From the NCBI GenBank assembly GCA_033853815.1, contig JAWOLE010000065.1, positions 1 through 61,574 of the forward strand: a DNA stretch of 61,574 nt, in the 5' to 3' direction. Source of the DNA: Thermoanaerobaculia bacterium (lineage in GTDB: Bacteria > Acidobacteriota > Thermoanaerobaculia > UBA5066 > Gp7-AA6). Each line of letters starts with the position of its first letter. Within the stretch, counting starts at the first letter, position 1. The translations under genes and the position numbers were made by a program. The notes under the pieces were generated by a model. The model was not told where the DNA came from. It ran no database searches and saw only the letters and a program-made list of their open reading frames with translations. Of this stretch, positions 1,174-56,718 are shown one piece after another.

Positions 1174-1275
1174 AGTCCCTAGTCCTTGGTCCTTAGTCCT
1201 TGGTCCTGTGACCATGGACGGACTAGGGACTAGGGACTGGGGACGAGGGACTAGGGACTAGGGACTAGGGACTAG
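1174..1275. repeat. Inverted heptamer arrays: AGTCCYT x5 (1174-1208) and GGACTAG x8 (1220-1275)
   Basis: Read directly. The arms are complementary and separated by 11 nt. They fill the convergent spacer between the hppA stop (1171) and the stop of 1272..1901, whose TAG is part of the last unit. Confidence 0.95.
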
Positions 1276-1901
1276 TTCTTCGGCATCCCCTTCATCATCT
1301 CGGACATGTCCCGGAACTTGACGCTGTCGGGTGGCGCCATCATCGAATCGGGGACCGAGGCCCCAAGATCGATGTCGCTGTTGGTCGTGGTGATCTTCGT
1401 GTCCCCGGTCTGCGCCTGATAGCGGACCGGGAAGTTCTTCAGGTCCCTCGCCAGCCAGTACTTCTCCTTCTGCGGTCCTCGCTCGACCGATTCCTCGTAC
1501 TCGTAGACGTCGCAGGGATGGCCCTCGACCGTCTCGGTGCCGACCTTCTTGCCTTTCGCCCGGACGTTCTCGATCTTGCCAACGTAGTCCGCCGAAGGGC
1601 CGCCGCGCCGGCGCACGTTCGCGGGGATCTTCATGCCAGTCGCCTGGCCCTCCTGCCACTGGTAGACGACGTCGCCCGTCCGGACCATGTTCATGTCCAT
1701 TCCCATGATCGACATCTTCATCCGGATCTTCTTGTCCTTCATCCAGATCTCGGCGTCGGTCGTCACGTCCCCCTGAGGCCCGCCCTCCATCTGCGTCCTG
1801 GACTTCCAGTGGGCCGACGAAAAAGCCTGGGCCCGCAAGGCGCCCGCGAGAGCCAGGGCGGCGAGCGCCAGGATCGCCGACTTGAAACGTAATGATGTCA
1901 A
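1272..1901 (-). CDS. Secreted hypothetical protein (LolA-like beta fold is only a guess)
   Basis: TTG start at 1901 preceded by AAGGAG. N-terminus MTSLRFKSAILALAALALAGALRAQA is a classical signal peptide. Codon usage matches neighbours. Confidence 0.6.
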   Translation of the reverse strand: MTSLRFKSAILALAALALAGALRAQAFSSAHWKSRTQMEGGPQGDVTTDAEIWMKDKKIRMKMSIMGMDMNMVRTGDVVYQWQEGQATGMKIPANVRRRGGPSADYVGKIENVRAKGKKVGTETVEGHPCDVYEYEESVERGPQKEKYWLARDLKNFPVRYQAQTGDTKITTTNSDIDLGASVPDSMMAPPDSVKFRDMSEMMKGMPKN

Positions 1902-1938
1902 GAGCTACTCCTTTCCCTTTGCGACTTCGGTCCCCCGG

Positions 1939-3123
1939 TCAAACAAAGCGGCAGAGAATTTCATTCGACAGCAGGAATCCCCGCTCGGTCAGGCGCGCGC
2001 GCCCGGAGGCCTCCTCGAGAAGATCCTGGCCCTTCCAGACGGCGTAGTCCTCGGGGAGCCGCGGGTCCTCCGAATTGCGTATGGCTTCCTCGATCTCGTC
2101 GGTGGCGACGCCCTCCGAAAGCCTCAGCCCAAGCACCACTCGCTCCCGCGCCTCTTCTTCCCGACCGATCGGCCGATCCAGGCAAAGCGGGCGCCGCCCC
2201 CGGGCGAGCTCCTCGATGTAACGCTCCAGCGAGGAGACGTTCGCGCGGCGCCGGCCGTCCCAGAACTCGTGCGCCGAGACTCCGAGCCCGAGGGTCGGAA
2301 TTCTCTTCCAGTACTTGAGGTTGTGCCGGCTTTCCCGTCCGGACAGGGACCAGTTGGAGATCTCGTAATGGCGGTATCCGCGGCCGCGGAGCGTCTCCGA
2401 CATTTCCAGCCACAGATCGGCCTGGGCGTCGTCGCAGAGGTAACGAGAAGGATGGAGGCGGCGATCCGCTTCGATCGATTTCGACTTCTCGGTTTCGAGC
2501 AGGTAGACCGAGACGTGCCCGGCGCCCGAGGCGCACAACTCCTTCAGGCTCTCCCGGAAGCTCCGCGCCGTCTGCTCCGGCAGTCCGAGAATCAGGTCGG
2601 CCGAGAAGGAGAGGTCGCTCGAGGCGAGGGCGGCGAGGGCACGGCGGGCCCCTTCCGCGTCGTGGCGCCGCTCGACGGCGGCAAGCTCCCGATCCTCGAA
2701 GGACTGGATCCCGACCGAGACGCGGTTGACGCCGGCCGCGATCCAGCGGCGGGCGGCTTCCTCCGAGACGTCCTCGGGGTTCGCCTCCAGCGTGACCTCG
2801 GCGGAGGGCCGGACCCGGAAGGAGGTTCGCAGCACCTCGAGCAATCGAACGAGATCCGAGGGCGGCGTCAACGACGGCGTTCCGCCGCCGAAGTAGACGG
2901 AGTCGAAGGATTCTCCCCGCGAGTCGGACGCGGCGAGCGCGACCTCCCGCATGAGCGCCTCCCGGTACCGCCCCGCCGACGAGCCGTCCGTCGAGACGAC
3001 GAAGGAGCAGTAGCCGCAGCGGGAGAGGCAATAGGGCAGATGCAGGTAGAGGCCGCAGGCAATCGGGTGATCGGGTGATCGGGCGATCGGGTGATCGGCC
3101 GCAGCCGTCGAAGACAGGATCAT
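1939..3123 (-). CDS. hemW: Radical SAM HemW/HemN-like coproporphyrinogen-III oxidase family protein
   Basis: LYLHLPYCLSRCGYCSF (CxxxCxxC), FGGGTPS, HemN C-terminal-like tail. ATG at 3123 overlaps the stop of the upstream ORF (ATGA). The remaining N-terminal part of the 757-aa track ORF is an Arg-rich GC artefact. Confidence 0.85.
   Translation of the reverse strand: MILSSTAAADHPIARSPDHPIACGLYLHLPYCLSRCGYCSFVVSTDGSSAGRYREALMREVALAASDSRGESFDSVYFGGGTPSLTPPSDLVRLLEVLRTSFRVRPSAEVTLEANPEDVSEEAARRWIAAGVNRVSVGIQSFEDRELAAVERRHDAEGARRALAALASSDLSFSADLILGLPEQTARSFRESLKELCASGAGHVSVYLLETEKSKSIEADRRLHPSRYLCDDAQADLWLEMSETLRGRGYRHYEISNWSLSGRESRHNLKYWKRIPTLGLGVSAHEFWDGRRRANVSSLERYIEELARGRRPLCLDRPIGREEEARERVVLGLRLSEGVATDEIEEAIRNSEDPRLPEDYAVWKGQDLLEEASGRARLTERGFLLSNEILCRFV
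3064..3098. repeat. Octamer array CGGGTGAT x4
   Basis: cgggtgat cgggtgat cgggcgat cgggtgat cgg. Lies inside the predicted first 20 codons of hemW. Confidence 0.95.
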
Positions 3124-4112
3124 CGAGCGCCTGCCAGCAACGCCTCTTCGGCCTCGCGGGCGAGGTCGGGACCGAAAGGAAAGAGCTTGCCGAGGTTGCC
3201 CTCGCGCGCGATCGGCGCGAGGTCGCGGCCGGATTCGTCGATCCACCGGGCCGCGGCGTGCAGGAGCGCCGCCCGGTGCTCGTCCCCCGACGCGGCCACC
3301 GCCTTCTCTTCCAGGCGCCCCGCGGCGGCGGCGTTTGCCGCGGGCTCGTGCAACCCGACGGGGCGCGGCGGGACGGTCGCGAGGCCGAGCCGAGCGCAGC
3401 AATCGCGAAGCCGCTCCTGCGCCAGGCTCGCCTGGGCGAAGTCGCCGTGGTGGACGAGATCGAAGAGGCCGTCCGACGACTCGGGATGGGAGGCGCTCGC
3501 GGCTTCCAGGGCCAGACGTCTGGCCTGACCGTCCTCGGCGAGCGGCACCGACGCCAGGAACCGGGCGCCGGACGCGGCCGCGCGGCCGACGGCGTCCTCC
3601 ACGACCTCCGGCGTCGCGGTCCACCCGGGCACGAAGGGCAGAAGCCAGCCCGCCGGGATGCCGGCCGCGAGCGCGGCCGCGAGCCCCTCGCCCGGAGGCT
3701 CGAGGCCGGGAAACCAGACGAACAGGGCCACGACGGCCGATCCGGGCTCCCGCGGGAGACCCGCGGGCTCGGGCTCGAGCAGGTAGACGGCCCGCCCCGA
3801 GGCCCGCGCTCCCTCGGCGGCCGCGCGGTAGGAACCGCGAACCTCCTCGGCGTCGGAGCACGGGCCGACCAGGACGGGGCCGGCGGGTCCGCGCAGAAGT
3901 GCGGTCCGCCAGACGCCCGCCTCGTGCGGCCCGGCGAGCATGGTGCCCTCGGACGCCCGGGAGAAGAAGCGGCGCTCGACGGGATCGAAGCGGAAACGCG
4001 GGGCGCCCACCTCGCCGGCGTAGGGAAAGGCCCTCGCCGCGATCCGACGGGAGGCGATCTCGAATTCCCCCGGGCGGACGATCGCGTTGCCGGAGGACTC
4101 GAAGACGATCAT
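3120..4112 (-). CDS. Hypothetical protein, translationally coupled between ribE and hemW
   Basis: Track ORF 3120..4148. The internal ATG at 4112 (MIVFESS...) overlaps the ribE stop (ATGA) and its own stop overlaps the hemW ATG. No motif recognised. Confidence 0.55.
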   Translation of the reverse strand: MIVFESSGNAIVRPGEFEIASRRIAARAFPYAGEVGAPRFRFDPVERRFFSRASEGTMLAGPHEAGVWRTALLRGPAGPVLVGPCSDAEEVRGSYRAAAEGARASGRAVYLLEPEPAGLPREPGSAVVALFVWFPGLEPPGEGLAAALAAGIPAGWLLPFVPGWTATPEVVEDAVGRAAASGARFLASVPLAEDGQARRLALEAASASHPESSDGLFDLVHHGDFAQASLAQERLRDCCARLGLATVPPRPVGLHEPAANAAAAGRLEEKAVAASGDEHRAALLHAAARWIDESGRDLAPIAREGNLGKLFPFGPDLAREAEEALLAGAR

Positions 4113-4743: not shown

Positions 4744-4771
4744 ATTCTTAATTCTCAATTCACAATTTCTT
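4744..4771. repeat. Heptamer array ATTCTNA x4
   Basis: attctta attctca attcaca atttctt, abutting the ribD stop codon (4771-4773). Confidence 0.9.
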
Positions 4772-7732: not shown

Positions 7733-7780
7733 TCTCCCAGTCTCCCAGTCTCCCAGTCTCCCAGTCTCTCCGTCTCACAG
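7733..7780. repeat. Octamer array TCTCCCAG x4 plus 2 degenerate units
   Basis: tctcccag x4, tctctccg, tctcacag. The HD-GYP stop (7775-7777) is in the last unit. Confidence 0.95.
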
Positions 7781-9514
7781 CGCCTCTGCGAGCTCCGAGA
7801 ACTCCGGTTCCTCGGGCGCCGGCTGCACGGGGATCGGGGCGATACGCCCCTTCTCGTAGGCCCGCACGAACGCGTCCACGACGACGGGGTCGTACCGCGT
7901 GCCGGCGAACTGCCGGATTCTCTTGACCACGTAGTCGATCTCCATCGCCTGCTGGTAGGGGCGCGCCACGGTCATGGCGTCGAAGGTGTCGGCCACCGTG
8001 ACGATCCGGGCCTGCAGCGGGATCTCCTCCCCCTTCAGGCCCTCGGGGTACCCGCCGCCGCTCCATTTCTCGTGGTGGTACTTCATGCCGGGAATGACAT
8101 CGGCCAGCTGGGGGATGGCCGACATGATGGCGGCGCCCTTGATCGGATGCGTCTTCATGATCTCGAACTCGGCTTCCGTCAGGGCCGTCGGCTTGCGGAT
8201 GATCCGATCATCCACGCCGATCTTGCCGACGTCGTGCAGCTGGGCGGAGAGACGGACCTTCTCCACTTGTGCCGGAGCCAGGCCCATCTCGGCCGCGATC
8301 GTGGCCGCGTAGGCCGCCACCCGGTCGGAGTGGCCTCGCGTGTAAGGGTCCTTGGCGTCGATCGCCTCGGCCAGCGCCCGGATCGAGGAGAGAAACAGCT
8401 CCCGGTTTTCGCGCGCCGCGCTTTGCACCTGATCGAACGCGGCCCGGATCGAGGCGCTCATGCGGTTGAAACTTTCCGAGAGGTCCGCGATCTCCGCCGT
8501 CCCGGCCACCTCCACGGTCGCTCCGTACTGACCCTCGCTGATCGCGTGGGTGGACTGGGCGAGTCTGGCGATGGGAGCGGCGAGGCGCCCGGCGAAGACG
8601 ATCCCGAGGAGGAGCGCCGCCGCGAGCGCGATCGCGCTCCAGATGATCGTGTCCCGCACCATCAGGTCCACCGACGCGAACGCGAGGTCGCGATCGCGCT
8701 CGACGAGAACGCCCCAGTCCGGCTGCCCGACCGGCGCGATCGAGGCGAGGACGGCCCCGCGGGGAGATGGTTCCGAGCGGGTCAGGCGGGCGGGGAAGCG
8801 CATGAAGTCGGCGACGAGAAGCGACTCGCGCCGCCCGGCGGCGCGGCCCACCAGGGGGAACACGATGTCTCCGCCCCGGTCCACGAGCGTGACCCGAACC
8901 TCCCGGTGCGCCTCGTCGCGGAACTCGCTGGCGATCGGCTGCCAGGACACCAGGGCCTCGACGACTCCGGTCCGCCTCTGGCTCTCGTCGGAAATCGGGA
9001 GCGCCAGGACCGCGACGGGGCCCAACTCCGGCAGCCAGAAGGGCTTACCCTGATAGAGCAGGCCGTCGCGCGCGGACTCGAAACCCTTGCGAAACTCGTA
9101 GTCGAGCTCGGCGGACCGCACGTCGGGGCCGACGAACCGGCCTGAGCCGGCGGCGTTGAAGCCGCGCAGGGCCACCAGAGGGGTTCTCCCGCTCAGGAAC
9201 GTCCCGAGGATCCGGGGGCCGTCCTCGGAGGTGAAGGGATCCTTCCCGGTGAGCTGGCCGGCCAGCCAGAGCGAGGCCGCGGCACTCTTCAACCTTTCCC
9301 GCGCCGAGGCGTAGAAGGCCGCCACGTGATCGGCCAGCGCGGAGGAGGAGCGCGTCAGGTACTTCTCTTCGAGCGTCTCGAGAGTCCGGCGGTTCCTGCC
9401 GATGAGCACCACGCCGGAGACGACCAGCGGGACCAGAGAAGCGAGAACGAGCGCCCCCGAAAGGACGACAAAGAGGCGGACTCGGCGCCTCGCGGAACGC
9501 CCGACCACGCGCAA
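7775..9514 (-). CDS. Membrane sensor with HAMP and HD-GYP phosphodiesterase domain
   Basis: N-terminal TM, periplasmic-type sensor region, second TM/HAMP, then QLHDVGKIGV and HHEKWSGGGYPEGL (HD-GYP signature). TTG at 9514 or GTG at 9508. Confidence 0.88.
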   Translation of the reverse strand: MRVVGRSARRRVRLFVVLSGALVLASLVPLVVSGVVLIGRNRRTLETLEEKYLTRSSSALADHVAAFYASARERLKSAAASLWLAGQLTGKDPFTSEDGPRILGTFLSGRTPLVALRGFNAAGSGRFVGPDVRSAELDYEFRKGFESARDGLLYQGKPFWLPELGPVAVLALPISDESQRRTGVVEALVSWQPIASEFRDEAHREVRVTLVDRGGDIVFPLVGRAAGRRESLLVADFMRFPARLTRSEPSPRGAVLASIAPVGQPDWGVLVERDRDLAFASVDLMVRDTIIWSAIALAAALLLGIVFAGRLAAPIARLAQSTHAISEGQYGATVEVAGTAEIADLSESFNRMSASIRAAFDQVQSAARENRELFLSSIRALAEAIDAKDPYTRGHSDRVAAYAATIAAEMGLAPAQVEKVRLSAQLHDVGKIGVDDRIIRKPTALTEAEFEIMKTHPIKGAAIMSAIPQLADVIPGMKYHHEKWSGGGYPEGLKGEEIPLQARIVTVADTFDAMTVARPYQQAMEIDYVVKRIRQFAGTRYDPVVVDAFVRAYEKGRIAPIPVQPAPEEPEFSELAEAL

Positions 9515-9520
9515 ATTATA
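9515..9520 (-). promoter_or_regulatory. Perfect TATAAT hexamer abutting the HD-GYP start region
   Basis: The reverse complement of 9508-9520 is TATAATTTGCGCGTG. A transcript starting about 7 nt after the hexamer would begin at the in-frame GTG (9508), i.e. be leaderless. Confidence 0.3.
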
Positions 9521-9542
9521 CCGCCCGCACCCAACCTGGCTC

Positions 9543-9642
9543 GTAAAACGTCAAACGTTAACCGTCAAACGTGGCGAGGTGAACCCCGAGCAACGGTGTC
9601 TGCCCCGTTCCAACGTTTCACGTTTTACGTTTTACGTTTTAC
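9543..9642. repeat. Inverted heptamer arrays GTNAAAC x4 (9543-9570) and GTTTYAC x4 (9615-9642)
   Basis: gtaaaac gtcaaac gttaacc gtcaaac ... gtttcac gttttac gttttac gttttac. The aroB stop TAA (9639-9641) is inside the last unit. Confidence 0.95.
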
Positions 9643-10724
9643 GGCTCCTGGAGTCGGACGCGCGCGGCGGCTTCGAGCCACTCGGCGATCGGGATCGCCT
9701 CGATGACTCGCGCCCGCCCGATCGCCTCGAGCAGGACCCCCGCCGTCCCGCGCGCATTCCCCTTCTTGTCGCGCGAAAGGTAGCCCTCGAGAGCCGCCGG
9801 GTCGCGCACCGGTTCCGGGAAGGGGCCGAGCGAGTTCAGAACATGTCGGACGCGCGACGCGTCCCGTTCGGGCAGGCGGGCACGCCTCTGCGAGAGATCG
9901 AGCGCCGCCGCGATTCCCCACGCCACGGCCTCCCCGTGGCGCAGGGCCCGATACCCGCCGGCGGCTTCGAAAGCGTGGCCGAGCGTGTGGCCGAAATTCA
10001 GGACTCGCCTGTTCCCCTCTTCTCGGAGGTCTGCGGTCACGACCGCCGCCTTGACGGCGATCGCGCCCGCCAGCAGGGAGAGCAGCGGCCCCTCTTCCCG
10101 GCGCAGCAGGCGATCGATCGCCTCCTCGGCCTCTCGCGCGAGCGACGCGTCGGCGATCCAGGCTCCCTTGAAGGCCTCGACCAGGCCCGCGCGGAAATCG
10201 CGGTCGGGCAGCGTCGCGGCCGCCCCGGGATCCACGAGTATGGCGCGCGGGGGATGAAAGGCGCCGAGCAGGTTCTTTCCGGCCGGGTGATCGACGCCCG
10301 TTTTGCCGCCGATCGCCGCGTCCGCCATGGCCCCGGTCGTCGTCGGGACGGCGTTCCAGGGGATGCCGCGCAGCAGGATCGCGGCCGCGAATCCCGCCAC
10401 GTCGGACACGACGCCTCCTCCGACGGCGACGAACGCGTCGTCGCGGCGGACTCCCGCCGCAATCGCCGCGTCCGCGATCTTCGAGACGGTCTCCAGGGTC
10501 TTCGCCTCCTCCCGATCGTCGATCTCCAGGCTCGTCAGCACCCGGCCGGCGAGGACGTCGCGGATCCGCTCGGCCGGAACGCGGGCGCCCCGCGAGGAGA
10601 CGAGCAGGAAGCGTCCCGAGGGAGACTCCAGATACCGTCCGGCTTCGGCCAGGAGGCCGGTTCCGATCCAGGCGACGCTGCCGGAAGAGCCGGAGCCGAT
10701 CGCGATCCGGCGCGGCTCCTTCAC
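9639..10724 (-). CDS. aroB: 3-dehydroquinate synthase
   Basis: VAVGGGVVSDVAGFAAA, GGKTGVDHPAGKNLLGAFHPP, NFGHTLGHAFE. The GTG start overlaps the aspS stop (GTGA). Confidence 0.9.
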   Translation of the reverse strand: MKEPRRIAIGSGSSGSVAWIGTGLLAEAGRYLESPSGRFLLVSSRGARVPAERIRDVLAGRVLTSLEIDDREEAKTLETVSKIADAAIAAGVRRDDAFVAVGGGVVSDVAGFAAAILLRGIPWNAVPTTTGAMADAAIGGKTGVDHPAGKNLLGAFHPPRAILVDPGAAATLPDRDFRAGLVEAFKGAWIADASLAREAEEAIDRLLRREEGPLLSLLAGAIAVKAAVVTADLREEGNRRVLNFGHTLGHAFEAAGGYRALRHGEAVAWGIAAALDLSQRRARLPERDASRVRHVLNSLGPFPEPVRDPAALEGYLSRDKKGNARGTAGVLLEAIGRARVIEAIPIAEWLEAAARVRLQEP

Positions 10725-14337: not shown

Positions 14338-14520
14338 ACGTCGCTTCGCGCTTGCGCGGGCTCTGCGCCTTCGGCGCACCGGCGAGCGGCTCGCCCGGAT
14401 GCGGGCTCGACCGCTAGCCTGACCCCGCTCAAGCGCTACGCTCCCGCGGCGCGCGCCTCGGCTTTCGGCGCAGGCGGTCGCTGCGCGACCGGCGCCGAGA
14501 GTTTCAAATACGAGGGCTAA
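14338..14520 (-). repeat. Family-1 modular GC-rich REP/BIME-like element, copy a (modules M2+M3, inverted)
   Basis: The reverse complement reads TAGCCCTCGTATTTGAAACTCTCGGCGCCGGTCGCGCAGCGACCGCCTGCGCCG (M2), then GAGGCGCGCGCCGCGGGAGCGTAGCGC...GCGGTCGAGCCCGCATCCGGGCGAGCCGCTCGCCGGTGCGC (M3). Confidence 0.85.
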
Positions 14521-15172: not shown

Positions 15173-16197
15173 CTCCCGACGTAGCGCTCGTAGAGAGCGC
15201 GGGCGAGCGCCGGGTCGCCCGTGCCGCGAACGATGCAGCGCCCGTCGGAGAAGACCGTCAGGGTCACGCCCTCGACCTCCGCCGAGAGCAGCTGTGCGGA
15301 GCGGCGCACCCGGCCGACGCGGGCGAGGCGCGACTCGAGGGCGGCGAAATCCGGCCGCTCCCGATCCAAAAGGGAGATCTGCACGGAGTTACGCCCGCAG
15401 AGCTTGACGACTTCCGAGGCCCCCTCCCCCTCGAGCGCGGGGAACCGGCGTCCCGCGCACACGGGACAGGCGGGAGAAGGCCGGGCGTTCTCGAAGAGAC
15501 GCCGCGCTGCGAGCTCCCCCTCCCAGACGGCGACCGACAGGACGCCCCGGGAAGCCGGGCGGCCGACCGCCAGGCGCAGCGCCTCGGTCAAGCCTGCCGA
15601 AGCGACGAGCATCGGGAGAGTCGGGACGACTCCGACCGTATCGCAGGTCGGCCCCGAGCCGGCCGGGGGCAAGGCTTCGAGGTAGCAGCGCAGACAGGGC
15701 GTTTGTCCCGGCACGCTCGCCGCGACCAATCCCTCCTCGCCGACGCAGGCGGCGTACACCGACGGGAGGCCGAGCGCCCGGGCCGCGTCGGAGACGAGAA
15801 GGCGCGTCTCGAAGTTGTCGGACCCGTCGAACACGAGGTCATGCCCGCCGAGAATCTCTCGCGCATTGTGGCGGTCGAGATCGGCGACCACGCCCGCGAC
15901 CGTGAGGTCCGGCGCGATCTCCAGCAGCCTTGCGGCGGCGGCCGCGGCCTTGGACGCCCCGCGCTCGGCGTCCTCCGCGTCGAAGAGGAACTGACGCGCG
16001 AGATTGGACTCTTCGACGACGTCCCGGTCGACGATGGTGATCCTTCCGACGCCCGCGCGCGCCGCGGACTCGGCGGCCGCCGCCCCCACCGCGCCAGCTC
16101 CGACAAACGCGATGGAGAAGGCGCGAATGCGCTCCTGACCCTCCTTCCCGATGCCCGGGAAGAGGATCGAACGGGAGTGCCGATTCAATTGGTTCAT
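15169..16197 (-). CDS. ThiF/MoeB-family E1-like adenylyltransferase
   Basis: FVGAGAVGAAAAESAARAGVGRITIVDRDVVEESNLARQ (Rossmann plus NLxRQ) and zinc CxxC pairs CLRC and CPVC. Confidence 0.85.
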   Translation of the reverse strand: MNQLNRHSRSILFPGIGKEGQERIRAFSIAFVGAGAVGAAAAESAARAGVGRITIVDRDVVEESNLARQFLFDAEDAERGASKAAAAAARLLEIAPDLTVAGVVADLDRHNAREILGGHDLVFDGSDNFETRLLVSDAARALGLPSVYAACVGEEGLVAASVPGQTPCLRCYLEALPPAGSGPTCDTVGVVPTLPMLVASAGLTEALRLAVGRPASRGVLSVAVWEGELAARRLFENARPSPACPVCAGRRFPALEGEGASEVVKLCGRNSVQISLLDRERPDFAALESRLARVGRVRRSAQLLSAEVEGVTLTVFSDGRCIVRGTGDPALARALYERYVGR

Positions 16198-16310
16198 TGA
16201 CTCATTGGTTCATTGGCTCATTGATCCATTGGTTCATTGAATCATTGAGCGGGTCGGCGGTTTTCCGAAGCAATCAGACAATGAACAAATGAATCAATGA
16301 ATCAATTCTT
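16185..16310. repeat. Inverted octamer arrays TCATTGNN x8 (16185-16250) and CAATGAAN x5 (16271-16310)
   Basis: CATTG recurs at 16195, 16203, 16211, 16219, 16227, 16235 and 16243. The complementary CAATGA recurs at 16279, 16287 and 16295. The thiF-like ATG (16197) and the recN stop (16302) are both inside units. Confidence 0.95.
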
Positions 16311-17969: not shown

Positions 17970-18016
17970 CGTGAGCCGTCCGCGGCAAGCCGCGCGGCCT
18001 CCCGGACAGCGAGGAA

Positions 18017-18025
18017 ATTATCTCA
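18017..18025 (-). promoter_or_regulatory. Possible extended -10 (TGAGATAAT) upstream of recN
   Basis: The reverse complement of 18017-18025 reads TGAGATAAT, 48 nt upstream of the recN ATG. No convincing -35 or LexA box seen. Confidence 0.3.
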
Positions 18026-18089
18026 GGCCTGCAGAGACCGTGAGGCGGAGGCTCCGATTCGGGAAGGGCCTGGTCTTGAAGCTCCTCGC

Positions 18090-27668: not shown

Positions 27669-27669
27669 G

Positions 27670-27763
27670 GCAGACGGGGCCGGAAGACGGTAGACGGAAG
27701 ATGGCAGACGTACGGGACACCGAATCTGGCTCTTTCGTCGCGCCTCTCCCGTCTTCCGTCTCC
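27670..27763. repeat. Heptamer array GAAGACG-type x4 (27683-27710, plus one unit at 27670) and complementary CGTCTYC x2 (27750-27763)
   Basis: gaagacg gtagacg gaagatg gcagacg ... cgtcttc cgtctcc, between the mlaD-like stop and the radA start. Confidence 0.85.
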
Positions 27764-27770
27764 CGGCTCC

Positions 27771-34976: not shown

Positions 34977-34994
34977 GGTGGGATCTTAAGGGAA

Positions 34995-35146
34995 AAGGTG
35001 TCAGGGAACAGGTGCCAGGTCAAAGGCAGGTGCCAGGTGTCAGGTATCAGGTAGCAGGGACGAGAGCCAAGCCCCGGCCCCGGACACCTGAAACCTGACA
35101 CCTGAAACCTGCATCTCCCCTGACACCTTCTAACCTGACACCTACA
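34995..35146. repeat. Inverted heptamer arrays CAGGTGN x~9 (34995-35061) and CCTGAMA x~8 (35083-35146)
   Basis: CAGG recurs every 7 nt (35002, 09, 16 ... 35027, 34, 41, 48, 55). CCTG recurs at 35087, 94, 101, 108, 119, 126, 134, 141. Fills the divergent PHP/polX spacer. Confidence 0.9.
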
Positions 35147-35155: not shown

Positions 35156-36889
35156 ATGGACCGGCAGGCCGTGGCCCGGGTGCTCGAAGAGATTGCCGCG
35201 ATGCTGGAGATGGCCGGCGAGAATCCCTTCAAGATTCGCGCTTACGAGGCGGGCGCGCGGGCCATCCAGACCTTTTCCGGAGACCTCGAGGCCGCGATCG
35301 CGAGCCGCCGGCTGCTCGAGGTGCCGGGGATCGGGCAGGGCCTCTTCGCGAACATCGAGAAGCTCGTCACGACCGGATCGCTTCCCTACTACGACGAACT
35401 GCGCGCGCGGTTTCCCCCCGGGCTGCGCGAGTGTTTGAGGATCCCGGGACTGGGGGCCCGCAAGCTCCGGCTTCTCCACGAGACCCTCGGCGTCGATTCG
35501 CTGGAGGCGCTGGAGAGAGCCTGCCAGGAGGGCAGGCTCGCCGGCGTCAAGGGGTTCTCCGCGGCCGGCGCGGAAAAGATCCTGAAAGGGATCGCGCTCG
35601 CCCGCGCGGGCGCCGGGCTCCACCGCTATCCGAAGGCCCGCCGGCGCGCCGAGGAAATCCGCGAGGCGCTCGCCGCGACCGCTCTCGCGTCGTCCCTGGA
35701 GATCGCGGGAAGCCTGCGCCGCAAGAAGGAGATCGTCCGCGATCTCGACATCGTGGCCGCCTCGCCGCAGCCCGCGCGCCTCTCCGAGGCCTTCCGGAAC
35801 CTTCCGGACGCGGCGGAGGTCCTCGCCGAGGGCCCGACGAAGACCTCCGTCCGGTTCGCCGACCGGTTCGCCGCCGACCTTCGCGTCGTGTCGGAGGCCG
35901 AGTTTCCGGCGGCGCTCCTCTACTTCACCGGATCTGAAGAGCACAACACGCTGCTGCGCGGCCGGGCGAAGCAGCTCGACCTGAAGCTGAACGAGTATGG
36001 CCTCTTTGGACAGGGCGGGCCGGTGGCGGGCGCCAGCGAGGCGGAGATCTACGGAGCGCTCGGCCTCTCCTACATAGAGCCGGAGCTGCGCGAGGGGTGG
36101 GGCGAGATCGAGGCGGCCGAGCGCGGCAAGCTTCCTCGCCTGGTGGAAGAACGCGACCTGCGCGGCGTGATTCACCTGCACACGACGGAGTCGGATGGGC
36201 GCGACAGCCTGGAGGCCATGCTCGCCGCCGCCCGGGACGCCGGATACTCCTACGCGGCGATCACCGACCACAGCAAGAGCGCGGCCTATGCCGGGGGCCT
36301 CGACGAGGCGAGGGTGCTGTCCCAGCGCGAAGAGATCCGGGCGATCCGTCCGCGTTTCCCGGGCCTGCGCATCTTCCACGGCACCGAGGCCGACATCCTG
36401 CCCGACGGGTCGATCGACTACGGCGACGAGTTCCTGAGGGGCTTCGACCTCGTCGTGGCCTCGGTCCATTCGAGGTTCGGCCTTCCAAGAGAGGACCAGA
36501 CCCGCCGGCTCATCCGGGCGGTGCGCAATCCCTTCGTCTCGATCCTGGGCCACGCGAGCGGGCGGCTGTTGCTCTCCCGCGACCCGCTCGAGGCCGACTG
36601 GGATGCCGTGCTCGTGGCCGCCGCAGAATCCGGCTGCGCCATGGAGATCAACTGCAACCCGGAGAGGCTCGACCTCGACTGGCGCCTCTGCCGCCAGGCC
36701 GTCCGCGCCGGCATCCTCCTCTCAATCGACCCGGACGCCCACTCCGTCGCCGAGATCGGCCTGGTGTCTCTGGGCGTCGGCATCGCCCGCAAGGGCTGGG
36801 TCACCCGGGAAACCGCGCTGAACGCGAAGAGCGCCGAAGAGTTGGAAGCCTGGCTCGTCCGGAGGCGCGGGGAGCCATTGCCGGATTGA
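35156..36889 (+). CDS. polX: Family X DNA polymerase with C-terminal PHP domain
   Basis: N-terminal HhH/Pol-beta-like region (ENPFKIRAYE, VPGIG), DLDIV nucleotidyltransferase block, C-terminal IHLHTTESDGR and ITDHS. Confidence 0.92.
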   Translation: MDRQAVARVLEEIAAMLEMAGENPFKIRAYEAGARAIQTFSGDLEAAIASRRLLEVPGIGQGLFANIEKLVTTGSLPYYDELRARFPPGLRECLRIPGLGARKLRLLHETLGVDSLEALERACQEGRLAGVKGFSAAGAEKILKGIALARAGAGLHRYPKARRRAEEIREALAATALASSLEIAGSLRRKKEIVRDLDIVAASPQPARLSEAFRNLPDAAEVLAEGPTKTSVRFADRFAADLRVVSEAEFPAALLYFTGSEEHNTLLRGRAKQLDLKLNEYGLFGQGGPVAGASEAEIYGALGLSYIEPELREGWGEIEAAERGKLPRLVEERDLRGVIHLHTTESDGRDSLEAMLAAARDAGYSYAAITDHSKSAAYAGGLDEARVLSQREEIRAIRPRFPGLRIFHGTEADILPDGSIDYGDEFLRGFDLVVASVHSRFGLPREDQTRRLIRAVRNPFVSILGHASGRLLLSRDPLEADWDAVLVAAAESGCAMEINCNPERLDLDWRLCRQAVRAGILLSIDPDAHSVAEIGLVSLGVGIARKGWVTRETALNAKSAEELEAWLVRRRGEPLPD

Positions 36890-36912
36890 CGATTGAGGAT
36901 TCCAGGATTGGG
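36884..36912. repeat. 7-8 nt array GATTGAN x4
   Basis: gattgac gattgag gattccag gattggg. The first unit contains the polX stop TGA (36887-36889). Confidence 0.85.
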
Positions 36913-38540: not shown

Positions 38541-38579
38541 GTGCGAGGTGCGAGACAAGCGCGAAGTGCGAGACGCGAG
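38541..38579. repeat. Heptamer array GTGCGAG (4 units, one 11-nt interruption)
   Basis: gtgcgag gtgcgag acaagcgcgaa gtgcgag acgcgag, directly after the hlyD-family stop. Confidence 0.8.
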
Positions 38580-39068: not shown

Positions 39069-39104
39069 GAACTGGCGAACTTAGAACTTGGAACCTAGAA
39101 CTTC
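39069..39104. repeat. Heptamer array GAACYTN x5
   Basis: gaactgg c gaactta gaacttg gaaccta gaacttc, 13 nt upstream of the ABC ATPase ATG. Confidence 0.85.
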
Positions 39105-41218: not shown

Positions 41219-41219
41219 G

Positions 41220-41304
41220 AATCGGGCGATCGGCTGATCGAGCCATCGGGCGATCGACGCGAGCCCTCAATCACCCGATCACCCGATCGCAGATCACCCG
41301 ATGG
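41220..41304. repeat. Octamer arrays GATCGRNC x5 (41220-41260) and ATCACCCG-type x4 (41269-41304)
   Basis: ATCG(G/A) recurs at 41221, 29, 37, 45 and 53. ATCAC/ATCGC recurs at 41270, 78, 86 and 93. The arms are partly complementary (GATCGGG / CCCGATC). Confidence 0.88.
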
Positions 41305-41365
41305 AAACGATAGAATCACCGCCCGGCGACTTGCGCCGCCGCAAATGGCTGGAAGGAGCGACCCC

Positions 41366-42429: not shown

Positions 42430-42432
42430 AGG

Positions 42433-42473
42433 AGAATTGATGATTGATGATTCGAGGATCGGTAGTGATTCGG
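42433..42473. repeat. 7-8 nt array GATTGAT-type x5
   Basis: gaattga tgattga tgattcg aggatcgg tagtgattcgg, directly after the folE stop. Confidence 0.8.
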
Positions 42474-42479
42474 CCCGCA

Positions 42480-42527
42480 TCCTAATTTCGTTAGGAGATT
42501 TGCTAGAAAATCCTAATAAAATTAGAA
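42480..42527. terminator. Two short AT-rich hairpins in the convergent folE/BtuF-like spacer
   Basis: TCCTAA-tttcg-TTAGGA (42480-42496) and (T)CCTAAT-aaa-ATTAG(A)A (42511-42527), in one of the most AT-rich spacers seen in the window. Confidence 0.35.
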
Positions 42528-42542
42528 GCAGCTCAATTCGCA

Positions 42543-42575
42543 GATCACCCGATCACAAATCACAAATTTCTGATC
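42543..42575. repeat. 7-8 nt array ATCACNN x4
   Basis: gatcaccc gatcacaa atcacaa atttctg. Overlaps the last codons and the stop (42560-42562) of the BtuF-like gene. Confidence 0.8.
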
Positions 42576-47248: not shown

Positions 47249-47304
47249 GGGCCCATATTAACCGCGCGGAGCGTTCCTCTCTTCCCCCGGCGACGGTGTT
47301 ACGC

Positions 47305-47675
47305 AAAAGCCGCCCTGGCGCCGTCGGCATTTTCCGCGTCGGCACGCGCCGGCCTGCCCGCAAGACTCCCAACCGGCCGGCGCTGAGGGTTCCTCGCAGT
47401 CTCGCGTAGGCGCCGGTTTCGCTCCTCCATGCTCGTCACCCATCACCTCCTCGGAAAACGCCGCCGTCTCCAGAGCTGATAGCTCCGCTTAAGTGAACCT
47501 GCCAGCCCCGGCGGCGGGACGCCTCCCGGAGGAGGCTTGAGAGAGGGAGCACACCACACAGGATCAGTCGCCTCACTGTCTGTGCGACCGAACGACAAGC
47601 GACGGCCCGGTTCTTGTATTGCGGCAGGGCCGTCGCGTGCCGACCAGGGAGGCGGGCCCGACGCCGGGGCGACGA
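47305..47675 (+). repeat. Family-2 element, copy C
   Basis: Termini CGCGTCGGCACGCG (47335-47348) and CGCGTGCCGACCAGGG (47634-47649). Shares CATGCTCGTCACCCATCACC, GCCCCGGCGGCGGGACGCCTCCCGGAGGAGGC and AGCGACGGCCCGG...GGGCC blocks. Confidence 0.85.
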
Positions 47676-47731
47676 ATTCGCCCACGGTTCAATCAGATGC
47701 TGCCGGCGGTGTGGTACTTTCGCCGGTCTCC

Positions 47732-50700
47732 ATGAATCGGCGCCTCCCAAGCGTCGCCCTGCTGCTCTTCGGGTCGGGGCTGACGGCCCTGATCTACCAG
47801 GTCGCGTGGATGCGGGAGCTGCGGCTCGTCTTCGGCTTCTCGACGGCCGCCTCCGCGGCGGTGGTCGCGATCTTCATGGGAGGCCTGGGCCTGGGAGGAT
47901 GGCTCCTGGGCCGGAAGGCCGACGCCGCCGGAAATCCCCTCGCGTTCTACGGCCGTCTGGAGCTCGGGGTGGCCGGCTCGGCGGCGCTGACGCCACTCTG
48001 GGTCTTTCTGGTCCAGAAGGGTTACATCGCGCTCGGAGGGACCTTCGCCCTGGGCCTTTTTGCAGGCACCCTGGTCCGGCTTCTCTTCTCTGCGATCGTG
48101 CTTGGCGTGCCGACCGTGCTGATGGGGGGCACGCTTCCCGCGGCGACGCGGGCGGTCGAAACCTCTCGGGACTCCCGCCGCCGCTTCCTCGCTCTGCTCT
48201 ACGGGTCGAATACTCTCGGGGCCGTCGCCGGAACGCTTCTCTCGACATTCGTGATGCTGGAGTCCTTCGGCACCAGAGAGACGCTCTGGCTTGCCTGCGC
48301 CGTAAACGCCCTCGTGGGGCTGGCGGCGGTCTGGCTCTCCCGGGTCGCCGCTCCCACTCCGGCAGCGAGCGGCGAAACGGCCGAGGCCGCCCAGAAGCGC
48401 CGCGAGGGGGAGCGCCCGGGTTCGCGGGAAGTGAGAGGCCGGGCAGCGGCGCCGCCGGCTGCGCTCCCCAACCGCAGATTCGTGCTCTCCGCGGCCGCCG
48501 GAGTGGGGTTCGCGTTCTTCCTGATGGAGCTCGTGTGGTATCGGATGCTCGCGCCGCTGCTCGGCGGCTCGACGTACACCTTCGGCCTGATTCTGGCGGT
48601 CGCGCTCGCCGGAGTCGGCCTGGGATCGGCGGCCTACTCGCGCTCGGGCCGCGGGCCGGCGAGACTCTCGAGCTTCGCGGCGACGTGCGCGCTGGAGGCC
48701 CTGTGCCTGGCCGTCCCCTACGCTCTCGGCGACAGAATCGCGGTCCTGGCGGCGCAGGTCGGACCGAAAGGGGCTTTCGCGCTGGCCGGCTACGCGGCGG
48801 GATGGTCCCTGGTGGCCGCGATCGTGGTGTTCCCCGCGGCCTTCGTCGCGGGCTTTCAGTTTCCGCTGCTGGTCGCCCTGCTCGGGAAGGGAGACGAGAG
48901 GGTCGGCACGGATGTCGGGCTGGCCTACTTCTGGAACACGGTCGGCGGTATCGCGGGCTCTCTTGCCGGAGGGTTCGGTCTGCTGCCACTGCTGTCGGCG
49001 ACGGGAACCTGGGTGTTTGTCGTCGGTTTCCTCTGCGCCCTCGGTCTCCTCGCCCTCCTCCCTGCCGGGCGCGGCGCCGGATGGAAGGGGCGGGCCTGGT
49101 TCCCCATCGGCACGGCGGCTCTGAGTCTCTTGCTCCTGCTCTCGACAGGCCCGACAGCCGCCTGGCGCCACAGCGCGATCGGGGCCGGGCGCGCAGACCT
49201 TCGAGGGGCATCCCCAAACGCCGTGGAGGAGTGGCTTCGGGACCGGCGGCGGCAGCTGGCCTGGCAGGCCGACGGCCTGGAGTCGAGCGTGGCGGTCCTT
49301 AAGAAACCGGGCGGCTACTCCTTCGCGATCGGGGGCAAGGTGGACGGCAACGTTCGGGACGACGCGCCGACGGGCGTCATGGGCGGGTTGATCGGAGCGG
49401 CGCTCTCTCCGGATCCCCGACGGGCGCTGGTGATCGGGCTCGGTACGGGGGAGACGGCCGGCTGGCTGGGCGCCGTTCCCGGCCTCGACCGGGTGGACGT
49501 GGTCGAGCTCGAGCCGGCGATCCTGCGCGTGGCACGCGATTGCGCGCCCGCCAACCAGAATGTCCTCTCGAACCCCAAGGTGCACGTCGTGATCGGCGAC
49601 GCGCGCGAGTTCCTGCTGACCTCGCGCGAGACCTACGACTTCATCTTCTCCGAACCGTCCAACCCCTACCGGGTCGGCATCTCGAGCCTCTTCACGGAGG
49701 ACTTCTACCGCGCCGCGCGCGCGCGCCTGAAGCCCGGCGGCATCTTCCTCCAGTGGCTGCAGGCCTACGAGGTGGATGCCATCACGGTCCGGACGGTCTA
49801 CCGAACGCTCCTCGCGGCCTTTCCCGAAGTGGAAACGTGGTTCACGCGCCCGGCCGATTTGCTACTCGTCGCGTCGGGCAAGCCGATCGCCTACAACGCC
49901 GCGCGCCTCTCCGAGCGGCTGCGTGCGGAGCCCTTCGTAACCGCCATGGAGGAGGTCTGGCGGGCGAGAGGACTCGAGGGTTTTCTCTCCCACCACCTGG
50001 GGCGCGCCTCTCTGGCCCGGGCGCTCGCCGGGGAGCCGGGCGCGGGAGAGAACAGCGACGACCGCAACCTGGTCGAGTTCGGGTTCGCTCGCAGCCTGGG
50101 ACAGCGCGGCTCCTTCAACGTGGAAGAGCTGCGGCGACGCGCCCGCTCGCGCGGGGAGGACAGGCCCGCCGTCTCAGGAGCCGTGGACTGGGCGGCGGTC
50201 GATCGGTGGCGGGTGACGGCTGTGACCTCGGATGGAGGGGTCCCGCCGGTTGACCCGGACATGACGGGAGAGGCCCTTCGACAGGCTCTCGCCCAGAAGA
50301 GCTTCATCAACGGAGAGGACGCAGTAGTCCTCGCGAACTGGCGCAGGCAGCCCTGGGAGCCGGTCGGGTCGGTCGAGGAGTTCGTCGTGGCGGAAGCCCT
50401 CGCCCAGGGAGGAGACGAGGGGGCGATCGCCTGGATCGACCGGCTGCGCGCGCCGCACCCGGTCGAAGCCGACCTCCTTCTTGCGCGCCTGCGCTGGGCG
50501 CAGGGGCGCCCGCAGGAGGCCGTCGATGCCCTCGAACGCGCCTTCGCCGCCTATCGCCGCGATCCGTGGCCTCTGCTGACGGCAGTCCGCAACGCCTTCC
50601 CGATGGTGCACGACATCGCCACGAAGGACGAGCGCCTCGCCGCCCGGCTCTGCGACGCCCTGGCGCACCCCTTCGCCGTCGCCCTGCTCGACGACGAGCG

Positions 50701-55639: not shown

Positions 55640-56682
55640 TGTCCACCGCCGCCGAACCCAAGGCCCTTCCGAAAAACCGCATCGGCCTGACCGTCAAGGA
55701 CTACGGCGGCCTGAAGTCCACGCTCTGCGTGGGGTGCGGGCACGACGTCATCACGCGCCAGATCACGCAGGCGTTCTTCGACATGGGAGTCGCCCCGTAC
55801 AAGGCGGCGAAGATGTCGGGCATCGGGTGCTCCTCGAAGACGACCGCCTACTTCGCCGACCGCGGCCACGGCTTCAACGCCGTGCACGGCCGCATGCCGG
55901 CCGTCGCCACCGGGGCGATGCTCGCCAACCAGACGCTGCTCGCGATCGGCGTGTCGGGAGACGGGGACACGGCCTCGATCGGGGCCGGGCAGTTCATGCA
56001 CCTCCTGCGCAGGAACGTCCCCATGATCTACATCGTCGAGAACAACGGCGTCTACGGCCTGACCAAGGGGCAGTTCTCCGCGACGGCGGACCTCGGGACG
56101 AAGTCGAAGGGCGGAGCCGTCAACGACCTGCCGGCGATCGACCTCTGCGCGATGGCGATCGAGCTCGGCTGCGCCTACGTCGCCCGCTCCTTCTCGGGGG
56201 ACATGAAGCAACTGCTCGCTTTGCTGAAGGGCGCGATCGCCCACCGGGGGACGGCGCTCCTCGACGTCATCTCCCCCTGTGTGACGTTCAACAACCACGA
56301 GGACTCGACCAAGTCCTACAAGTGGGCCAAGGACCACGAGATCCCGATCCAGGAGATCGGCTTCGTCCCCTACTTCGAAGAGATCACCGTGGACTACGAC
56401 CCCGGCACGACGCAGGACGTCGTCCTCCACGACGGCTCCCACATCCGGCTGAAGAAGTTGAAGGAGGACCACGATCCGACCGACAAGAAGGCCGCCTTCA
56501 ACCTCCTCCACGAGGCGCAGGAGAAGGGAGAGTTCCTGACGGGCCTGATCTACGTCGAGCCGGAGAAGAAGGACTTCCTCTCGCTGCTGGACCTCCCCGA
56601 GGAACCGCTCGCGACCTTGCCCCTGGACCGGGTCCGCCCGCCGCGCGAAGCCCTCGCTCGGATGATGGAGGAGCTCCAGTAG
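55636..56682 (+). CDS. korB: 2-oxoacid:ferredoxin oxidoreductase beta (TPP-binding) subunit
   Basis: CVGCGHD and GVSGDGDTASIG TPP-binding block. The start overlaps the korA stop. Confidence 0.9.
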   Translation: MMSTAAEPKALPKNRIGLTVKDYGGLKSTLCVGCGHDVITRQITQAFFDMGVAPYKAAKMSGIGCSSKTTAYFADRGHGFNAVHGRMPAVATGAMLANQTLLAIGVSGDGDTASIGAGQFMHLLRRNVPMIYIVENNGVYGLTKGQFSATADLGTKSKGGAVNDLPAIDLCAMAIELGCAYVARSFSGDMKQLLALLKGAIAHRGTALLDVISPCVTFNNHEDSTKSYKWAKDHEIPIQEIGFVPYFEEITVDYDPGTTQDVVLHDGSHIRLKKLKEDHDPTDKKAAFNLLHEAQEKGEFLTGLIYVEPEKKDFLSLLDLPEEPLATLPLDRVRPPREALARMMEELQ

Positions 56683-56687
56683 CCCGG

Positions 56688-56718
56688 CTCGGGGATTCGG
56701 ATCTCGGATTTCGGTCTT
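56688..56718. repeat. 7-8 nt array (G)GATYTCG x4
   Basis: TCGG recurs at 56689, 56697, 56704 and 56711, between the korB stop and the TTG start of the Mo-oxidoreductase. Confidence 0.8.

Follow-up and report, generated by a model that had tools for sequence, protein, structure and literature searches.

Arrays of short tandem units at the locus

The stretch of DNA considered here, contig JAWOLE010000065.1 of a Thermoanaerobaculia bacterium, represents 61.6 kb of the source genome (61,574 nucleotides) and is referred to below, in its whole length, as the window. It has a GC content of 69%, and a gene model built from codon-usage log-odds and checked with Pfam on 47 genes divides it into 55.5 kb of coding sequence and 6.1 kb of spacer. 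It belongs to the core of the chromosome in a Thermoanaerobaculia-like Acidobacteriota genome, that of an uncultured soil bacterium, and carries housekeeping genes encoding H+-PPase, RibD, FtsY, AroB, AspRS, HisRS, DnaB, Alr and MlaDEF as well as PolX, FolE, Lhr, POR (pyruvate:ferredoxin oxidoreductase) and Nuo subunits. PolX is the gene at 35156-36889 (Pfam), and the gene named recN in a preliminary description of this DNA, made without database searches, is the SMC-like gene at 16302-17954. A tRNA scan of the window and an Rfam search over it at the gathering threshold gave no match, and neither a transposase nor a REP-associated tyrosine transposase (RAYT; REP, repetitive extragenic palindromic) was found by Pfam among the 47 genes. 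The subject of this analysis is a feature of the spacers, namely tandem arrays of 7- or 8-nt units that often face each other as inverted pairs (Table 1).

The preliminary description listed 21 intervals with this periodicity, and all of them were borne out. Autocorrelation is strongest in each at the period originally given, 7 or 8, with a per-site P of at most 0.0165 throughout and below 0.001 for most (2000 shuffles). Tandem Repeats Finder (TRF) gave arrays of these periods at all the major sites of that list. The 6.1 kb of spacer contain 14 arrays of at least three copies, 477 nt in total, whereas 100 dinucleotide-preserving shuffles gave 0.04 on average and never more than one. Coding DNA (55 kb) contains no period-7 or period-8 array except that at 3062-3098, which lies at an ambiguous gene start, and the period-6 and period-9 arrays of the window are confined to coding DNA. 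A wider set, consisting of the window and 153 high-GC loci (related or control; 1.58 Mb in total), contains 161 non-coding arrays of period 7 and 30 of period 8, with 8 of period 9, 4 each of periods 6 and 5, and 3 of period 10; the coding arrays include 54 of period 6 and 33 of period 9. Genes in these loci were called with a simple caller trained on the window, which leaves too much sequence as 'non-coding'; the enrichment figures are therefore conservative. The window arrays have the properties of long simple sequence repeats (LSSRs), with head-to-tail units of 5-11 nt in runs longer than chance, a predominance of heptamers, and units other than multiples of 3 kept out of coding DNA.

The units have a mean GC content of about 55% compared with 69% for the genome. 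Many arrays fit a period of 14, 16 or 24 nt better than one of 7 or 8, and such two- or three-unit higher-order repeats account for the 'N' positions in the units as first described. At least 13 unit types occur within 61 kb. Most sites in the window have a unit of their own, as had been proposed, although CGGGTGAT/ATCACCCG is the unit at three of them. The claim that almost every spacer is built from such arrays was too broad, since they occupy 13 of the approximately 32 spacers of 15 nt or more (about 40%).

The arrays might in principle be a chance pattern or an artefact of assembly, but the probability of this is negligible. The shuffle controls exclude chance, and homologous arrays are present in independently assembled relatives. 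Further, an independent Logan assembly, SRR16529308, is identical to window 41273-42476, parts of two arrays included, and thus reproduces the array sequence wherever it covers it. This 1.2-kb contig, the only Logan contig with the same sequence, differs from the window at two small sites only, near its 3' end and beyond the repeats. Both of its ends lie close to or inside repeat hairpins, and arrays of this kind break short-read assemblies.

Table 1. Period-7 and period-8 arrays of the window, with their strand, unit, support and genetic context (TRF arrays have at least three copies, except those marked short)
Position	Strand	Unit and arrangement	TRF array	Support	Context
1174..1275	.	AGTCCYT x5 (1174-1208) + GGACTAG x8 (1220-1275), inverted pair	1182-1275	period 7, match 0.82/0.92; dG -68.6, z -9.7	fills convergent spacer from H+-PPase gene (stop 1171) to DUF4412 gene (stop 1272); stop codon CTA/TAG belongs to a unit
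3062..3098	-	CGGGTGAT x4.6, single; mRNA strand AUCACCCG	3062-3098	period 8, match 0.93	22 nt past stop of gene 3120-4112, ahead of radical-SAM/HemN-like gene; unit family as at 41220-41304
4744..4771	-	ATTCTNA x4, single; mRNA NAGAAUU	4744-4767	P=0.001	ends on ribD stop
7733..7780	-	TCTCCCAG x6, single; mRNA GACUGGGA, G-rich	7733-7780	period 8, match 0.90	overlaps HAMP/HD-GYP gene stop (7775)
9542..9643	-	GTNAAAC x4 + GTTTTAC x4, inverted pair, hairpin	9542-9572/9613-9643	z -4.6/-5.2	one arm overlaps aroB stop (9639); TATAAT box after hairpin, immediately ahead of HD-GYP gene start
16182..16310	-	TCATTGNN x8 + CAATGAAN x5, inverted pair	16182-16248/16279-16306	z -5.5/-6.7; 24-nt higher-order period	one arm overlaps recN/SMC-like stop (16302); other arm gives thiF start codon (16197)
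27681..27770	-	GRAAGACG-type x4 + CGTCTYC x3.7, inverted pair; first mRNA arm G-rich	27681-27710/27745-27770	z -6.0/-6.4; stem of 6 bp plus 1 mismatch per unit	adjoins mlaD stop (27771)
34989..35146	.	CAGGTGN x9 / CCTGAMA x8, hairpin	35009-35058/35086-35111	z -8.8/-11.7	divergent spacer, PHP-domain gene / polX; flanked by -10-like boxes (ATCTTA ... TACAAT); member of dispersed family
36884..36912	+	GGATTGA x4, degenerate single		period 7, P=0.0015	begins within polX stop (36889); followed by tetR promoter/operator-like AT-rich palindrome
38541..38579	+	GTGCGAG x4, interrupted single; G-rich on mRNA		P=0.0005	5 nt past hlyD-family stop
39069..39104	+	GAACYTN x5, single	39077-39103	14-nt higher-order period	immediately follows ~400-nt dispersed element; ABC ATPase start 13 nt downstream
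41220..41304	+	GATCGGGY x5 + ATCACCCG x4, inverted pair	41270-41302	z -3.8/-8.8	2 nt past ABC-2 permease stop; followed by TAGAAT box and AhpC/redoxin gene; kept unit for unit in relatives L003 and L004
42433..42575	.	two degenerate (N)nTGAT arrays	short, at 42436 and 42552	P=0.002 and 0.0125; z -3.3	convergent spacer; ATTGATG-type units after folE stop (42429); TTTGTGA/CGGGTGA units take in Peripla_BP_2 stop (42560) and last codons
56688..56718	+	GGATYTC x4, degenerate single	short, at 56696	P=0.0005	6 nt past stop of POR beta-type gene

Pairing, placement at gene ends and strand polarity

Six sites had been described as arrays facing an array of the complementary unit, and these six inverted pairs form long, nearly continuous hairpins (z -4.6 to -11.7). 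A seventh pair, at 42428-42580, folds more weakly (z -3.3). In a typical stem, six paired bases are followed by one mismatch, unit after unit. Across the loci, 52 neighbouring pairs were found, whose loops have a median length of 20.5 nt. Loops are rich in GC, lack repeats and differ from one orthologue to another. About half of the arrays are unpaired. A CRISPR array, which has repeats of 23-47 nt and unique spacers of similar length, was rejected because the units here are 7-8 nt long and contiguous.

Of the 142 non-coding arrays in the first 1.14 Mb of the set, 41 are no more than 8 nt away from a stop codon and six no more than 8 nt away from a start codon. Arrays are present in 30 of 102 convergent spacers (29%), 82 of 556 tandem spacers (15%) and 13 of 152 divergent spacers (9%); the difference between convergent and divergent spacers has a Fisher P of 2.7e-5. 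Arrays thus favour gene 3' ends, and the earlier view that all spacer types are used alike does not hold. The contacts reported with stop codons (those of the gene at 1272..1901, of ribD at 4771, and of the HD-GYP gene, aroB, the recN-like gene and polX) and with the thiF start were all found (Table 1). Arrays can in this way supply or mask start and stop codons and mislead gene callers.

The arrays are also polarized in base composition. Those adjoining a stop codon have more G than C on the mRNA strand of the gene in 56 cases and are C-rich in 8 (P=6e-10). In tandem spacers, G-rich arrays prevail close to the stop (50:4) and C-rich ones at distances above 40 nt from it (39:6), so that a hairpin is read in the order G-arm, loop, C-arm. 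Acidobacteriota show the polarity at 32:7, and the remaining phyla, for the most part Gemmatimonadota, at 21:1. Within the window, 11 of the 14 stop-adjacent arrays have more G than C on the sense strand, 5/6 after genes of the + strand and 6/8 after genes of the - strand; the polarity therefore tracks the strand of the gene and not a fixed DNA strand. The exceptions are the single array at 3064-3098 and both arms of the convergent pair at 1174-1275, the only pair in the window with its C-rich arm first. Seeding by the stop codon was rejected as the source of the polarity, as the bias is 27:7 in arrays without a stop trinucleotide. Mimicry of the Shine-Dalgarno (SD) or anti-SD sequence (GGTGATC against the 16S 3' end) was likewise rejected as a general explanation: 11 of 72 arrays have a match of 5 nt or longer, compared with 6.9 in shuffles (P=0.07), and the longer matches come from one related family.

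A G-rich sense strand next to stop codons would also be expected of G-quadruplex elements, which have been proposed for the heptamers of Xanthomonas and Nostoc, and some units do bring one GGG tract per repeat (GGGACTA, CTGGGAGA and CGGGTGAT). However, at least three GGG tracts are present in only 17 of 72 stop-adjacent arrays, and many units have no G-run (GTAAAAC, TTCATTGA, ATTGATG, GAGAATT). The sequence of the units thus excludes G-quadruplexes as a general explanation, and we regard this reading as very improbable.

The placement and polarity of the arrays raise a further reading, that the hairpins are RNA elements under selection at the 3' ends of transcripts, for which tandem repeats are merely the easiest route to a long stem. 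U-tract-less terminators, RNase III sites and REP-like blocks against 3'-exonucleases are candidate roles. Under this reading the arrays directly past stop codons, their enrichment in convergent spacers and the arm polarity bound to the gene strand would all be expected, and the -10-like boxes (TAGAAT, TACAAT, TATAAT) that follow several hairpins would indicate that the hairpins mark transcription-unit boundaries. A terminator and promoter scan of the first 20 kb showed no enrichment, its U-tract terminators being no more than chance would give (12 versus 8.9 expected, all within genes), and the Xanthomonas repeats are transcribed (PMC4692102). On the other hand, no T-run follows the array stems, and the canonical intrinsic terminator, a GC-rich stem-loop with a U-tract, was rejected for this reason and because the scan of the first 20 kb had no matches in spacers. 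The mismatches give no positive sign of selection on an RNA fold, as G.U and A.C mismatches on the sense strand number 11 and 12, with no excess of the former. The hairpin at 41215-41310 folds far better on the antisense strand (-61.9 kcal/mol) than on the sense strand (-39.1 kcal/mol), the single arrays, about half of the total, can form no hairpin, and hairpins stand in divergent spacers too. Moreover, close relatives have the same junctions without a hairpin. Strong conservation of the arm at 41269-41304, considered below, again speaks for an RNA element. Taken together, this reading is possible but rather unlikely.

The -10-like boxes are an observation in their own right. TACAAT, TAGAAT and TATAAT were seen 5-10 nt ahead of starts at polX, the HD-GYP gene and the AhpC-type gene region (window 36915-36956, 35138-35155 and 9509-9541). 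Such short spacing between box and start suggests leaderless or very-short-leader mRNAs.

Turnover, dispersal and proposed origin

The nearest genomes are metagenome-assembled genomes of uncultured Acidobacteriota/Thermoanaerobaculia, with a PolX identity of 63-76% and the gene order kept, and FolE has metagenome matches of at best 89% identity. The exact PolX protein is not on record, and a genome of the same species was not found. Polymorphism was therefore read from pairs of near-identical related contigs. The two members of one pair (L158/L159, 98.6% identical) differ by a single gap, a 14-nt indel of two units within an array, and a second pair (L062/L063) likewise shows a 14-nt two-unit array indel. 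In a pair that is 99.7% identical (L111/L112), an 83-nt hairpin stands against 17 nt, and in another (L010/L092, 97.7% identical) a hairpin stands against a short spacer with about one unit left of each arm. Unit numbers also differ strongly between L002 and L013, in which the four-fold degenerate sites are 92% identical in two genes and 83% in a third. The unit-number polymorphism through slippage that is characteristic of LSSRs, and for which the preliminary description had suggested looking, is thus present in related lineages among contigs 97-99% identical. Arrays of this kind can serve as markers, comparable to variable-number tandem repeats, for strains of uncultured soil bacteria.

The same repeat architecture occurs patchily in relatives and in Gemmatimonadota. 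At orthologous junctions, arrays are present in some relatives and missing in others, and where they are missing the spacer measures 13-70 nt, with the -10-like boxes unchanged. Since such relatives keep short spacers and boxes, the arrays are extra, dispensable DNA. Directly downstream of the folE stop, about 80 metagenomic relatives have at least ten different units (TTGTGAW, TGGTGAT, AAGTCCA, GCCGTGA, GACTGTC, AGGTCGA, GGTTTCY and AAGTCYC are examples) or none, and in several the unit contains the stop codon. Similarly, at the end of the Peripla_BP_2 gene of the window (42560), the first unit consists of the last two codons and TGA. The variety of units at the folE stop and the stop codons built into units argue for local generation at gene ends. 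The 14-nt indels and the gain and loss of whole hairpins also support the proposal of local slippage there.

The two arms of a hairpin change together in some cases. In a pair of Gemmatimonadaceae loci that are 91% identical (L050/L053), one has ACTGCGT/ACGCAGT and the other ACTGCGA/TCGCAGT throughout both arms, a complementary substitution homogenised across about ten units. The same pair contains an AGGGGTC/ACCCCTG hairpin (L050 7015-7163, L053 7125-7272) whose 83-nt loop, which consists of two sub-hairpins, is inverted in one relative to the other: it matches at 74/83 positions as the reverse complement and at 61/83 in the forward direction. The inversion of this loop strongly suggests recombination between the two arms.

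Local generation was originally contrasted with a dispersed repeat, and here the preliminary description needs revision. Seven hairpins of the CAGGTGN type, in three non-orthologous spacers, can be aligned over their whole length and have non-periodic landmarks in common (GGGAAATGCAGGTG / CACCTGCATTTC). A further sequence, CGCAGATCACCCGAT, is shared by two sites of the window and by L003 and L004, where its sites are non-orthologous. In the Gemmatimonadaceae pair just described (91% identical), a CTGATTG/CAATCCG hairpin of one member is replaced in the other by the ACTGCGR family, which is found at two other sites of the same genome. Some families (CAGGTGN and ATCACCCG among them) are dispersed copies.

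Dispersal of this kind could mean that the hairpins are non-autonomous elements resembling MITEs (miniature inverted-repeat transposable elements) or REP/BIME (bacterial interspersed mosaic element) sequences, whose units are bound by a transposase encoded elsewhere with a preference for insertion next to stop codons. The complex architecture common to CAGGTGN hairpins of non-orthologous spacers, the landmark CGCAGATCACCCGAT at several sites, the replacement of one family by another at an orthologous spacer, and presence or absence between near-identical genomes are all in keeping with this. In addition, inverted subterminal arrays of transposase-binding repeats occur in other transposons. However, filled and empty sites differ without a target-site duplication or a clean boundary, and the short alleles, which keep about one unit per arm, resemble remnants or seeds of the same hairpin; a MITE was rejected on these grounds. 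The diversity of units, with at least 13 types in 61 kb and about ten at one gene end, would require many transposase specificities. Many arrays are single, and the window encodes neither a transposase nor a RAYT. We therefore consider a mobile-element origin unlikely.

Two other dispersed repeats were observed in the window. A non-coding element of ~400-450 nt is present at 38600-39060 (+), 47290-47740 (+) and 17990-18500 (-), and in L003 at 8255-8680. Relatives have an orthologous spacer of just 9-68 nt, which marks the element as an insertion. Its strongly conserved blocks include GCCTCCCGGAGGAGGC and GCGTGCCGACGAGGGAGG..CCCGACGCCGGGGCG, and the consensus structure predicted from four copies contains 99 pairs, of which 19 show compensatory changes. 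Rfam gave no match for it even at E<=1. The element is a candidate mobile structured RNA or MITE. Further, a GC-rich REP-like repeat (CTCTCGGCGCCGGTCGCGCAGCGACCGCCCGCGCCG) of ~60-110 nt lies in spacers at 14461-14520, 32015-32084 and 33694-33762, with a partial copy near 21510; the copies occur in both orientations with 88-93% identity.

For the arrays themselves, we propose, as on balance probably correct, that they are long simple sequence repeats of 7-8-nt units, mostly imperfect palindromes, which are made and remodelled as DNA, fill the dispensable DNA after stop codons and are filtered by the direction of transcription. In a first step, replication slippage would gain or lose blocks of one or two units, as the 14-nt indels and the higher-order periods of 14, 16 and 24 nt indicate. 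In a second step, inverted arms would swap sequence by intramolecular recombination, gene conversion or template switching, a step suggested by the loop inversion and by the complementary substitution over about ten units in both arms. Such exchange would keep the arms complementary without selection on an RNA fold. Third, some families are copied to other spacers, as the dispersed hairpins attest. Fourth, arrays would build up where a compact genome has its only dispensable DNA, between a stop codon and the next promoter or start; as this DNA would begin at the stop codon, arrays would come to adjoin it. Finally, the direction of transcription would set which arrays survive, giving the observed polarity. 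Rho is loaded at rut (Rho utilization) sites, and the likeliest cause is that exposed C-rich untranslated RNA would recruit it and bring about polarity, so that arrays with a C-rich, G-poor tract first on the transcript would be lost. As a by-product of these steps, many gene ends would carry a long hairpin with mismatches at regular intervals. Such a hairpin plausibly forms a barrier for the transcript at its 3' end, ahead of the next promoter. Close relatives without it at the same junctions indicate that it is dispensable.

Several results weigh against this proposal. The TRF-called lengths of paired arms correlate only weakly (rho 0.22, P 0.13), so that the arms are not tightly coupled, and symmetric growth of the arms was rejected on this basis. 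In the pair at 41220-41304, three units of the left arm carry T->C changes and the right arm is unchanged. That right arm (41269-41304, 35 nt) is identical at 35/35 positions in L003 and 34/35 in L004, where four-fold degenerate sites of the flanking genes are only 0.50-0.63 identical; with a P of about 1e-7 if neutral, this points to constraint or to a maintained family consensus. Avoidance of Rho is a trend only, as C-first exceptions make up 7/33 in convergent and 4/54 in tandem spacers (P=0.09). Copying between spacers is without an evident mover, the window encoding no transposase, and the preference for 7 nt is not accounted for by the proposed mechanism.

The conservation of units across genomes whose synonymous sites are near saturation could also be explained if the arrays were multi-site platforms for sequence-specific DNA- or RNA-binding proteins, such as global, nucleoid or post-transcriptional regulators. 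The build of the unit, a conserved core of 5-6 nt with one or two variable positions, would suit such a function, for which there are precedent hypotheses in Geobacter metallireducens (PMC2700814) and for TAACTGA repeats (PMC4679880). There are, however, too many unit types for one or a few proteins, the neighbouring housekeeping genes are unrelated to one another, near-identical genomes differ through gain and loss of arrays, and two-unit higher-order repeats account for the variable positions. A role as binding platforms is therefore improbable.

A bolder reading would treat G-first heptad hairpins as a distinct functional class of transcription-unit boundary, common to several high-GC groups (Acidobacteriota, Gemmatimonadota, Xanthomonadales and Geobacter), that spreads without a transposase by slippage and by template switching from arm to arm and from spacer to spacer. 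The 7-8-nt register, with a purine- or G-first and C-second order of arms, would enable a stem lacking a U-tract to halt or insulate RNA polymerase and at the same time keep the C-rich arm hidden from Rho. We put this forward as a speculation with a low chance of being correct.

Other elements of the window and comparison with known systems

Some further features of the window were noted. An AT-rich palindrome (CCTTATTTAATTAGGAG ... CCTAATTA..AAGG type) lies at 42480-42525 in the convergent folE/Peripla_BP_2 spacer, between the two arrays. It is kept, despite a GC content of 69%, in nine of the related loci (L010, L085, L089, L091-L093, L105, L107 and L115) and may be a bidirectional terminator or an operator. 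A second AT-rich palindrome, AATAAATAAATGTATATTTATTTA, precedes the tetR-family gene, is kept in relatives and looks like the operator of that gene. The spacer upstream of dnaB (33458-33762), conserved in L001-L015, has an AT-rich core (AAAAATATTT) and DnaA-box-like motifs (TTATCCACAG in relatives, TTTTCCACA at window 33529). Only one DnaA box with at most one mismatch is present in the window, and gene orientation flips from - to + near 35 kb; the spacer could be oriC or a dnaB promoter under DnaA control. A tandem duplication is represented by two paralogous genes, 24228-24818 and 25643-26215, that have no Pfam match, lie 1400 nt apart with 73-86% DNA identity and enclose a small gene. A 965-nt region of lower GC (0.61), 20693-21657, received no confident gene call, and the open reading frame at 20796-21374 within it has no Pfam match.

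The preliminary description knew of no account of such arrays from a high-GC genome, but two are on record. In Xanthomonas campestris and X. axonopodis (~65% GC), intergenic GGGAATC heptamers, mostly of about four units, form 70-75 inverted array pairs per genome that are close together and capable of forming stem-loops (Rehm et al., 2015; PMC4692102). These repeats are transcribed; they are G-rich on the sense strand near the stop and antisense near the next start, and they are depleted between divergent genes (PMC4692102). The arrays described here resemble them in the inverted complementary pairs, six of them strong in the window, in the depletion of divergent spacers, and in the order of arms (56:8 at stops; 50:4 proximal versus 6:39 distal in tandem spacers). 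Arm polarity is thus known from at least three phyla, Acidobacteriota and Gemmatimonadota from the present data and that of Xanthomonas from the literature, and is a testable clue that transcription shapes these repeats. The two systems differ in that Xanthomonas has a single dominant unit, read as a G-quadruplex former, whereas here there are at least 13 types in 61 kb, most of them not capable of forming one. Units of 8 nt are also common here, and the phylum is different. Tandem GGGAATC does not occur in the window.

In Geobacter metallireducens, three to five tandem units of 7-9 nt (GTTGCTYN, TCTCCGTS[Y], MTYCTGA) form multicopy families at intergenic sites, mostly as opposite-strand pairs at variable distance, which are missing in the sister species and have been proposed as binding sites of global regulators (Aklujkar et al., 2009; PMC2700814). 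Short tandem units, opposite-strand pairs and multicopy families are all found here as well. Geobacter, however, has few families with 8-24 pairs each, while most window sites have their own unit, and the hypothesis of regulator binding fits this diversity poorly. None of the Geobacter consensus units (GTTGCTYN, TCTCCGTS, MTYCTGA) is present as a tandem in the window.

At the level of class, the arrays agree with the LSSRs surveyed by Mrazek and colleagues, who, as summarised in PMC4679880, found heptanucleotides to be the commonest long class and proposed polymerase slippage (Mrazek et al., 2007). According to such summaries, LSSRs have a scattered phylogeny, are typical of large, high-GC genomes of non-pathogens, and have units that, when not multiples of 3, are kept out of genes (PMC4679880, PMC4692102). 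The survey was statistical and covered genomes to 2007; inverted pairing, abutment to stop codons and arm polarity do not figure in the summaries of it.

The closest analogue named in the preliminary description was the short tandemly repeated repetitive (STRR) sequences of heterocystous cyanobacteria. The likeness is fair at the level of class, as both are tandem, intergenic, dispersed heptamers. The STRR units CCCCAGT, TTGGTCA and CAACAGT are, however, absent from the window, as is TAACTGA, and a few fixed units with ~100 copies in a heterocystous cyanobacterium are not what is seen in this Acidobacteriota genome. TAACTGA repeats, known from Beggiatoaceae, cyanobacteria and Bacteroidetes, are mostly located just upstream of starts and are rarely inverted, and like STRRs they consist of few fixed units per genome (PMC4679880); here the arrays follow stop codons and are often paired. 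REP/BIME sequences and MITEs are likewise intergenic imperfect palindromes, often at gene 3' ends, in dispersed and strain-variable families. Tandem-repeat arms are not a defining feature of either, no conserved GTAG/CGTC head, as in REP/BIME, was seen among the units, and no Y1 transposase is encoded among the window genes.

Heptamers have been recognised as the commonest class of long SSR in bacteria from the time of the STRR reports and the 2007 LSSR survey. The architecture found here is known from the Xanthomonas, Geobacter and LSSR classes, none of whose unit sequences occurs in the window. What differs from these known classes is the diversity of units per genome, the share of spacers that is filled, and the phylum. 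With arrays in ~40% of its spacers and many units, this lineage is an extreme case, which helps to separate the properties that depend on the sequence of the unit from those that do not.

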